Part shown: one piece after another, positions 58,196-59,307 of the stretch | How positions within the stretch are numbered: position 1 is the first letter of the stretch | How the letters are laid out: each line of letters starts with the position of its first letter | Source of the DNA: Escherichia phage KM01 | DNA length: 64,000 nt | Strand: one strand, 5' to 3' | Sequence record: PV018827 | Position numbers and translations under genes: made by a program | The notes under the pieces: generated by a model | What the model was told of the DNA's origin: nothing | What the model saw: only the letters and a program-made list of their open reading frames with translations | The model's database searches: none

Positions 58196-58585
58196 TTATT
58201 CCCTAGAGCTGTTATCGAACACTAAATCACCACAATACATAGGATTGGCATACCATTTTGGCACCCCTTCGCTCTTACTCTGAAAGTAAGTCCCACTGTA
58301 CAGCGGAACATAATTCTTCTTAAGGGCACGTTTAGCCAGCCGCTCGCTTTCTCCAATGGCTTGCTTAGTCATCGGATTTTTATCACGAATCAGCTTTACA
58401 TAACGTTTATAAGGTTTCTCCTGTTTTAATAGTACCGGAATCCACTCAAACTGGTTCTTTTGTCTTATCACCTGTTCAGCGGTCAGTTTTCGTTGGGCCA
58501 TTCTATTTATCACGGTATCCGCAACTAAAGCCTTACATGCGGTTGGCTGGTTCCCTGCCTCATAATAAATAGTCAATGTCAACAT
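58196..58585 (-). CDS. SleB-like cell-wall hydrolase domain protein
   Basis: N-terminal YYEAGNQPTACKALVADTVINRM resembles the conserved EA...G..AVA.VI.NR core of SleB/Hydrolase_2 proteins. Confidence 0.45.
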   Translation of the reverse strand: MLTLTIYYEAGNQPTACKALVADTVINRMAQRKLTAEQVIRQKNQFEWIPVLLKQEKPYKRYVKLIRDKNPMTKQAIGESERLAKRALKKNYVPLYSGTYFQSKSEGVPKWYANPMYCGDLVFDNSSRE

Positions 58586-58666
58586 TAGCTGTGCCGTTGT
58601 TATCAGAACTTGCTACCTCCTCTTTTGTTGTTTCAATAAACACCCTCGAAAAGATGCTTATAGAAA

Positions 58667-58690
58667 CACCCCTCCCGAAAGGGAGAGGTA
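58667..58690 (-). terminator. weak hairpin terminator after the adhesin-like gene
   Basis: CCTCCC-gaaa-GGGAG(A)GG imperfect hairpin just downstream of stop at 58696; T-run weak. Confidence 0.3.
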
Positions 58691-58695
58691 TTATC

Positions 58696-59286
58696 TTACC
58701 ACTCATAACTTACACCAGCACCCAGAACAGCGTCACTCTCTGAAGTCATTGCCACTGATGCTTTAGTTACTACGTTTTCATTGAAACGAGCACTAACACC
58801 AACAGCAAGAGCAGATTCACCATCGTAAGCACCTACCCCAGCACCAACAGAGAAAGCAGATCCCTGACTTACTTGCGGGATGTTAGCCATTGCAGCCACA
58901 CCAGAAATACCAGCAGAGGCATGATCACGGTTACGGTCTACTTGTTTTTGCAAAGAAGCAAAACGTTTATTGGTGGATTGTTCCAGAGCTTTGATGGATT
59001 TGGAGTTAGCATTAACGGCAGACATATCTGCATCTTTACCATTTTTGCCATTTAATCCGTCAACGCCATTCAAACCTGCTGCACCAGTTAGGCCAGTTTC
59101 GCCTTTCTTACCATCTGCACCAGAATCACCTTTTTCACCTTTAAACCAATCTCCGATACCGCAACCATTGGTAGATTGACCTACACCACAACCTCCATTG
59201 CCATTGCCATTGTTTCCACTTTTAGCAATAACAGGCGATGCCATTACGGACAGAGCTAGGATTGAGGATAATACAATTGCTTTCAT
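58696..59286 (-). CDS. secreted collagen-repeat protein with YadA-like C-terminal outer-membrane anchor
   Basis: Track frame 58696-59415; likely start MKAIVLSS at 59286; signal peptide; G-X-Y repeats GEKGDSGADGKKGETGLTGAAGLNGVDGLNGKNGKD; C-terminus GISGVAAMANIPQ...AVGVSARF...LGAGVSYEW typical of trimeric-autotransporter anchors. Confidence 0.6.
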   Translation of the reverse strand: MKAIVLSSILALSVMASPVIAKSGNNGNGNGGCGVGQSTNGCGIGDWFKGEKGDSGADGKKGETGLTGAAGLNGVDGLNGKNGKDADMSAVNANSKSIKALEQSTNKRFASLQKQVDRNRDHASAGISGVAAMANIPQVSQGSAFSVGAGVGAYDGESALAVGVSARFNENVVTKASVAMTSESDAVLGAGVSYEW

Positions 59287-59298
59287 TTCATAGATTCC

Positions 59299-59307
59299 TA
59301 TACAGTA
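59299..59307 (-). promoter_or_regulatory. TACTGTATA promoter-like motif directly upstream of the adhesin-like gene
   Basis: Minus-strand CTACTGTATAGGAATCTATGAAATG between terminator T-run and start codon; same 9-mer at 24361-24369. Confidence 0.3.

Follow-up and report, generated by a model that had tools for sequence, protein, structure and literature searches.

We analyzed a 64,000-nucleotide stretch of DNA from Escherichia phage KM01 (sequence record PV018827; hereafter, the window) for an open reading frame (ORF) at positions 58696-59286, which begins with ATG and encodes a 196-residue collagen-stalk protein with a YadA-type anchor. This ORF and the features described around it lie on the minus strand unless stated otherwise. 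Its product is likely to be a minimal trimeric-autotransporter-type outer-membrane protein that is made by the infected cell and is not a part of the virion. A megablast search with window positions 57900-59600 as the query matched 99 phage records, nearly all of them from Escherichia/Shigella phages of the genus Kuravirus (subfamily Gordonclarkvirinae), the closest being SkaterBoy_Bas90, EK5 and phiEco32 with 97.7-98.4% identity. The window comes from a Kuravirus, a lytic E. coli phage related to phiEco32, and by sequence comparison the ORF is the ortholog of phiEco32 gp119 (phi32_119, ABY52920).

The precursor can be divided into five segments. Residues 1-21 (59224-59286; MKAIVLSSILALSVMASPVIA) form a signal peptide as judged by sequence inspection: K2 provides the charge, AIVLSSILALSVMA the hydrophobic core, and a V-I-A|K cleavage motif lies near residues 21/22, so that the N-terminus MKAIVLSSILALSVMASPVIA|KS fits a Sec signal peptide in charge, core and V-x-A cleavage pattern. 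A similar signal peptide opens nearly all full-length family members. The distal tip (residues 22-49; 59140-59223) is rich in Gly and Asn and carries a Cys pair, C33/C42, just before the collagen-like tract. Two tip types are found in kuraviruses, KSGNNGNGNGGCGVGQSTNGCGIGDWF and HSDKC(x5)CE(x)QQ, with the Cys pair directly before the collagen run in both; type A comprises 28 residues and type B about 12, and the window allele has the type A tip, as does phiEco32. The pair is also kept in the homologs of N4-like phages, and we infer from this sequence pattern that the tip cysteines may staple the N-terminal end of a collagen triple helix. The tract itself (residues 50-85; 59032-59139) consists of exactly 12 uninterrupted G-X-Y triplets without proline. 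It is followed by a predicted alpha-helical (coiled-coil) stalk (residues 86-136; 58879-59031) and by the YadA-type membrane anchor (residues 137-196; 58699-58878) with the C-terminal end ...VSYEW.

A Pfam search assigned the anchor to PF03895 (YadA_anchor, four beta strands) with E=3.8e-19 over 60 of 60 profile positions. The Collagen profile reached 27.4 bits, just above its cut-off of 27.2; this marginal score reflects only the short tract, because longer orthologs score strongly (E=1e-15 to 1e-23). No adhesin head, neck or stalk domain was detected in the Pfam search of the 196-residue protein. When compared with PDB sequences by phmmer, residues 107-196 aligned to the YadA anchor 2LME (E=2.7e-8) and the stalk to the pre-barrel helix of YadA, and Hia was matched too. 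The AlphaFold2 (AF2) model, a monomer predicted from a 55-sequence alignment, contains a continuous helix at residues 89-134 (predicted local distance difference test, pLDDT, about 71-87) and strands at residues 145-154, 157-167, 172-181 and 186-194 (pLDDT about 80-87), and its residues 1-84 have pLDDT <50, as expected of a collagen tract in a monomer. In a Foldseek search against the PDB with this model, the only significant matches were the transmembrane domains of Hia, AtaA and YadA (target-normalised template modelling score 0.77-0.86, root-mean-square deviation 1.7-2.6 A). The original prediction, made from the letters of the window, had proposed a signal peptide, about 12 G-X-Y triplets, a coiled stalk and a C-terminus typical of trimeric autotransporter adhesins (TAAs), and all of these were recovered. 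It had also said that the absence of anchor or collagen matches in profile searches, or a C-terminus that forms no beta-barrel in structure prediction, would speak against it; on the Pfam, phmmer, AF2 and Foldseek results, both profiles matched and the model superposes on known anchors.

The gene is already known, since its phiEco32 ortholog has been annotated since 2008 and yadA homologues of other phages appear in later comparative papers. Moreno Switt et al. (2013) described such homologues in phiEco32, cyanophages and My1, with a non-tail location (PMC3728262). Labels differ between records: phi32_119 is an 'agglutinating adhesin' in EU330206 (2008) and a 'tail protein' in RefSeq, the EcP-vB ortholog is a 'YadA-like protein', and SkaterBoy Bas90_0117 is again a 'tail protein', a label that probably stems from similarity of the collagen repeat. 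The functional literature on phage homologs, considered here without the original phiEco32 genome and transcription papers, yielded annotation-level mentions only and no experimental paper. The coding sequence (CDS) starts of EU330206 phi32_119, PQ850626 Bas90_0117 and NC_010324 are extended upstream through a terminator hairpin, a probable misannotation. Published CDS lengths are 265 (phiEco32), 305 (SkaterBoy) and 258 aa (EcP-vB), with starts mostly upstream across the terminator; counted from the signal-peptide ATG, the first two become 226 and 262 aa. We rejected the long upstream starts (TTG at 59415, giving 239 aa here, and the published 265-aa CDS), which cross both upstream terminators and sequence that is intergenic in phages Paul and SGF2. 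The start supported by this analysis is the ATG of MKAIVLSS.

Comparison of the flanks with related genomes revealed that the ORF sits in a discrete cassette. Relative to phage Paul, blastn homology ends at 58626 and restarts at 59310, leaving 683 bp here versus 5 bp in Paul; this interval (58627-59309; delimited by blastn against Paul, phiEco32 and EcP-vB) contains a leader, the yadA-like ORF and the ORF's own terminator. The cassette matches 15 records (12 phages: SkaterBoy, Ec3-ASingh, phiEc_1, EK5, phiEco32, PGN6866, ShigP1, MN03, EcM-vB1, EcK-vB, EcP-vB and FS2B), compared with the 99 records that match the flanks. In most related records the slot is empty, and both Paul and SU10 are without the cassette. 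Two phages, SGF2 and 172-1, carry instead a 99-aa gene of the helix-turn-helix (HTH) HTH_37/XRE type in the equivalent slot (SGF2 stretch 1592-1891, minus strand). This HTH gene overwrote a pre-existing yadA, because the yadA leader (CTAYTGTATAGGAAT), a yadA 3' remnant (GGTGTAAGTTA...) and the hairpin region are retained around it. The slot therefore exchanges cargo, being empty or holding either yadA (with two tip types) or an HTH gene, and the gene studied here counts as accessory cargo at this recombination-prone site in the early arm of kuraviruses. A second variable gene stands beside the cassette just upstream: a 57-aa leucine-zipper-like ORF (59480-59653, PHROG 22185), which Paul shares with the window and which phiEco32, SU10 and SGF2 lack.

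The idea of a moron-like cassette bracketed by terminators, also part of the original prediction, agrees with its variable presence at a fixed site and with the hairpins on both sides. Two further features of morons, an own promoter and a deviant base composition, were not found. The ORF has a GC content of 44.5%, the mean over genes being 42.7% (standard deviation 2.8), and GC at third codon positions is 26.4%, the lowest of 50 genes and hence in the AT-rich direction. No DNA match to the cassette gene was found in 5,426 complete E. coli genomes. With a composition that is phage-like and no match in these genomes, a recent capture from E. coli was rejected, and the description of the gene as 'host-type' does not hold for its composition. 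Its assignment to the early region of a lytic phage proved correct: the SU10 paper defines CDS 69-125 of this genome type as early genes (PMC4281155), the locus falls within the early, non-structural arm so defined, and the structural module is far off at 103-18026.

Directly upstream of the cassette lies a terminator of the phage backbone (59319-59338; GCCCCGGCTACGGCTGGGGC followed by T6; -18.6 kcal/mol), which is annotated as a terminator in the cassette-less phage Paul, and a further terminator-like hairpin with a T-tract, also backbone, is found at 59406-59423 (-12.3 kcal/mol). In the type B phage EcP-vB, a different, non-homologous hairpin (GCCTCCTTAATTGGAGGC-T6; 4590-4625, minus strand) occupies the position of window 59319-59338; judging from the sequence, a terminator-like structure still stands immediately ahead of the start codon there, though the sequence itself has been replaced. 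Just after the ORF, an intrinsic-terminator-like hairpin with a weak T-tract (GGTGTTTCTA) belongs to the cassette (58669-58688; -20.0 kcal/mol, z=-4.8). The cassette leader (CTACTGTATAGGAATCTATGAA; 59287-59309) contains a candidate AGGA ribosome-binding site at 59300-59297 and also precedes the HTH cargo in SGF2; in the type B allele only TATAGGAA of it is retained.

A promoter-like motif of the gene's own had been proposed as well, and this did not survive the analysis. No sigma70-like site was found between the upstream terminators and the ATG, so a sigma70 promoter for the cassette was rejected. The phage sigma factor gp36 recognizes tAATGTATAtA / AATGTA (PMC4281155; PMC12276001), and the leader holds TACTGTATA at 59307-59299, one mismatch from the motif TAATGTATA. 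Such one-mismatch sites occur at chance frequency (24 found versus 19.6 expected), and in the type B allele the motif is degraded to TATTATATA; a gp36-type promoter was rejected. In addition, TACTGTATA overlaps the AGGA site and, as a promoter, would give a leader only some 6 nt long. Read-through of early transcripts probably provides a low level of transcription of the gene, the simplest explanation given that no promoter of its own was found and that strong sigma70-like promoters lie far upstream (62771-62743 and 63404-63376). Five exact copies of TAATGTATA occur in the window, at 13558 (plus), 24280 (minus), 24352 (plus), 31004 (minus) and 63505 (minus), those at 24280 and 24352 being a divergent pair about 70 bp apart; by sequence, the five sites probably represent genuine gp36 promoters, the middle and late ones of phiEco32.

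The main variable of the family is the length of the collagen-like tract. Phage phiEco32 and other kuravirus orthologs share the locus and its flanks with the window at 97-98% nucleotide identity outside the repeat, and phiEco32 gp119 has the same signal peptide, type A tip, stalk and anchor; the number of triplets differs, with 12 in the window versus 22 in phiEco32, 34 in SkaterBoy and 37 in EcP-vB according to the translated orthologs. Metagenomic kuravirus-type proteins contain 18-39 triplets and N4-like Salmonella phage homologs 26-49. The block that varies is made up of 18-bp tandem repeats, each encoding GIDGKD. The window allele, the shortest seen, equals the phiEco32 allele minus 10 triplets, that is, minus the whole (GIDGKD)n block, which was lost by deletion between two GEKGD-coding direct repeats. 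All alleles that differ in length stay in frame, with a conserved anchor. An identical protein is encoded on one 50.8-kb Logan contig with the same gene order; because this contig may share its source with the window, the 12-triplet allele may be an assembly collapse of the repeat rather than a natural deletion. The repeat is an assembly hazard in general: the records of MN03, PGN6866 and FS2B begin, end or split inside it, an example being the 125-aa MN03 'adhesin'.

Homologs are by no means confined to kuraviruses. Our tblastn search identified genes with a YadA anchor in 78 phage records that span many virulent lineages, including the N4-like Salmonella phages FSL SP-058/076, the jumbo phages GAP32, fHe-Yen9-04 and 7t3, the T4-like phages SKML-39, TG1 and phiR1-RT, and phages of Erwinia, Pantoea and Aeromonas. 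Across distant lineages the anchor residues are invariant. Together with the phiEco32 ortholog and the published homologues (PMC3728262), these records contradict the view that such a gene is unexpected in a lytic phage. The N4-like Salmonella proteins (the 'agglutinating adhesin' of FSL SP-058/SP-076; PMC3728262) and those of other virulent phages share the signal peptide, Cys-pair tip, uninterrupted G-X-Y run, helix and anchor with the window protein. The Salmonella proteins are 55-65% identical to it over the C-terminal three quarters and are likewise encoded at a non-structural location, between an RNA polymerase subunit gene and the dUTPase/TerB genes; they differ in a tip of about 55 residues, in 26-49 triplets and in a gene that forms part of an operon and has no terminators on either side. 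Among bacterial proteins, the nearest are small TAAs of Cedecea, Enterobacter and Salmonella, which share the anchor with the phage proteins though not the collagen tract. A gene combining collagen and anchor is present in Yersinia enterocolitica in a non-phage chromosomal context.

Several known systems offer further points of comparison. With TAAs (type Vc: YadA, Hia and AtaA), the window protein shares the signal peptide, the coiled-coil stalk, a C-terminal anchor with four strands per chain and the C-terminal aromatic residue; unlike them, it lacks head and neck domains, has a collagen-like tract in place of most of the stalk, is only 196 aa long and is encoded by a virulent phage. This comparison draws on the predicted monomer and the sequence, and trimerisation and adhesion are predicted by analogy only. 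The Eib proteins of E. coli are TAAs encoded by prophages. The streptococcal collagen-like proteins Scl1 and Scl2 resemble the window protein in having an uninterrupted G-X-Y run next to a trimerising domain and a triplet number that varies between alleles; however, the anchor here is an outer-membrane barrel and not LPXTG, and the 12 triplets are proline-free, which makes the stability of a triple helix uncertain. Llp of the virulent phage T5 is an early-expressed, Sec-exported outer-membrane lipoprotein. The likeness to Llp, a Sec-exported outer-membrane protein among the early genes of a virulent phage, is one of function only, as the two proteins are not related in sequence or structure and receptor blocking by the window protein is suggested by analogy only.

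The gene next to the cassette (58196-58585), described in the original prediction as a cell-wall hydrolase, is a backbone gene outside the cassette and encodes a 129-aa protein of the SleB/CwlJ family. Its Hydrolase_2 signature (PF07486) scored 32.2 bits versus a cut-off of 27 over profile positions 2-85 of 100, which confirms that part of the description. The family is narrow, with 15 homolog clusters, 13 of which have precomputed PF07486 matches, and the E9 residue of YxEAGNQP is invariant in it; this residue may be equivalent to the catalytic Glu of SleB. The protein also matched PHROG 12974 and 938, with a weak hit to an 'endolysin' family (E=1.9e-7). A PDB profile search returned no relevant match and no solved SleB structure was matched by sequence; its AF2 model (pLDDT 47, from a shallow alignment of 13 sequences) was unusable. 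Because the gene also occurs in the cassette-less phages Paul, SU10 and SGF2, its adjacency to yadA is incidental, and it was rejected as a partner of the cassette. It was also rejected as the endolysin of the phage, given a Phage_lysozyme gene and a candidate holin at 2394-3132. The former (2641-3132; E=4e-32) is preceded by the 72-aa holin candidate, an arrangement that matches the holin-endolysin pair reported for kuraviruses (PMC9965538).

Some further genes deserve brief mention. Five tandem small ORFs (72-86 aa) at 56547-57734 share the pattern L.L.DLK.GDVF ... DG ... NL..G ... DL.ITN and, on this sequence pattern, seem to be an array of paralogs. A 99-aa ORF with a lipobox (LTGC) at 54128-54427 points to another exported envelope protein in the same early arm as the yadA-like gene; it is probably the counterpart of the 'putative phage lipoprotein' of phiEco32 and a possible candidate for an Llp/Cor-like exclusion factor. 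A tRNA-Arg gene (anticodon TCT; 54574-54649) overlaps at its end a 140-aa ORF (54640-55062) that is HNH-like by eye only. In the public records of the yadA-like gene (EU330206, PQ850626 and NC_010324), the 98-aa neighbor labelled 'DNA helicase' (PHROG 12154) is too small for a helicase.

Taken as a trimeric-autotransporter-type protein, the product of the yadA-like ORF would follow the route of its larger relatives. Its precursor would be exported by Sec and assembled with the help of the beta-barrel assembly machinery (BAM), the C-terminal 60 residues contributing four strands each to a 12-stranded trimeric barrel through which the helical stalk and the collagen-like triple helix would pass to the cell surface. 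The resulting rod would be roughly 16-18 nm long here (36 residues x ~0.29 nm = ~10 nm, to which the stalk adds ~6 nm) and much longer in other alleles, and it would be capped by a tiny Cys-bracketed tip in place of an adhesive head. As to its role, we tentatively propose that it may remodel or shield the surface of the infected cell and so lower the adsorption of other phages or of the phage's own progeny, T5 Llp being a functional parallel; this is possible rather than probable. We favor surface shielding because there is no adhesive head, rod length is the main variable, the gene lies among early genes and there is an O-antigen layer to cross. Kuraviruses depend on the O-antigen and then touch the cell surface via short fibres (PMC11990801), so a surface rod could plausibly interfere with their adsorption.

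A number of points weigh against this interpretation. The whole case is built from sequence and predicted structure, the AF2 model being of a monomer in which residues 1-84 have pLDDT <50, and twelve proline-free triplets may form no stable triple helix. Neither the sigma70 nor the gp36 scan upstream of the gene yielded a promoter for it, and low expression by read-through is a poor fit for a steric shield. The gene is dispensable, because it is absent from about 85% of relatives, and no match to it was obtained with the PADLOC defence-system models.

Three other explanations were considered for the same protein. The main rival is a classical adhesin or aggregation factor, a surface rod that would stick infected cells to their neighbors or to surfaces and bring new hosts near the burst. 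The historical annotation as 'agglutinating adhesin' and the anchor subfamily shared with small enterobacterial TAAs point in this direction, and TAAs commonly mediate autoaggregation (PMC7568254); the same paper, however, attributes autoaggregation to sticky globular heads, and the window protein has no head, only a tip that measures 12-28 residues across the two types, so we regard this role as rather unlikely. A virion tail or tail-fibre protein, as labelled by RefSeq and PHROG, would be in line with the match to the 'tail protein' family PHROG 26246 (E=1.3e-85), with weak matches of the collagen region to tail-fibre PHROGs and with the 'YadA domain-containing structural proteins' of cyanophage virions (PMC9146016). 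Those tail-fibre matches are restricted to the G-X-Y region, though, and the gene does not look structural: it belongs to the early arm, well away from the structural module, its N4-like homolog has a non-structural setting, and SU10, Paul and most relatives are without it yet have complete virions, SU10 and Paul being infective. Because of the Sec signal peptide, the outer-membrane beta-barrel anchor and the absence from SU10, a virion role is very unlikely, by far the least probable of the readings. A lysis role of a spanin-like kind was rejected as well, since a TAA passenger is directed outward and the phage already possesses lysis genes.

The protein could also be hitch-hiking or decaying cargo without a current function, especially in the window, where the allele has collapsed to 12 triplets by natural deletion or in assembly. 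This would account for its absence from most relatives, for the HTH gene that overwrote yadA in SGF2 and 172-1 and left only a 3' remnant, for the lack of a promoter in our scans and for an allele that is the shortest seen and arose by deletion between direct repeats; several public assemblies, moreover, break inside the repeat. On the other hand, the four fully translated alleles (window, phiEco32, EcP-vB and SkaterBoy) have an intact ORF that includes signal peptide and anchor, and in the other carriers tblastn aligns the C-terminal three quarters in one piece, although some of these records break off within the repeat. No length change disturbs the reading frame, the invariance of anchor residues extends across distant phage lineages, and several unrelated groups of virulent phages have preserved the architecture. 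Decay is therefore improbable, less so than a virion role and more so than adhesion, and an outer-membrane protein made by the infected cell remains the reading that we prefer, with surface shielding as its tentative role.

As a sequence feature, the gene is ordinary, being an allele of one annotated in phiEco32 since 2008, and the public 'tail protein' annotations and upstream-extended CDS starts are probably wrong. The question that it raises is why unrelated virulent enterobacterial phages (kuraviruses, N4-like, T4-like and jumbo) keep an exported, collagen-stalked outer-membrane protein. One speculative answer, which we put forward as unlikely, is that collagen-stalk YadA-anchor proteins are a widespread class of surface-remodelling factors in virulent phages, whose head-less rod would limit phage adsorption (superinfection exclusion or protection of progeny) and in which slippage of (GIDGKD)n would tune the rod, from 12 to ~49 triplets, to the thickness of the O-antigen or capsule. 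If the protein does act as a superinfection exclusion or aggregation factor, its gene would add a novel kind of accessory gene that acts on the envelope to those of lytic phages, and the repeat-length polymorphism would be explained. Such a role would also bear on phage-therapy cocktails, as pathogenic E. coli are treated with kuraviruses and some annotations flag the gene as a 'virulence' adhesin.

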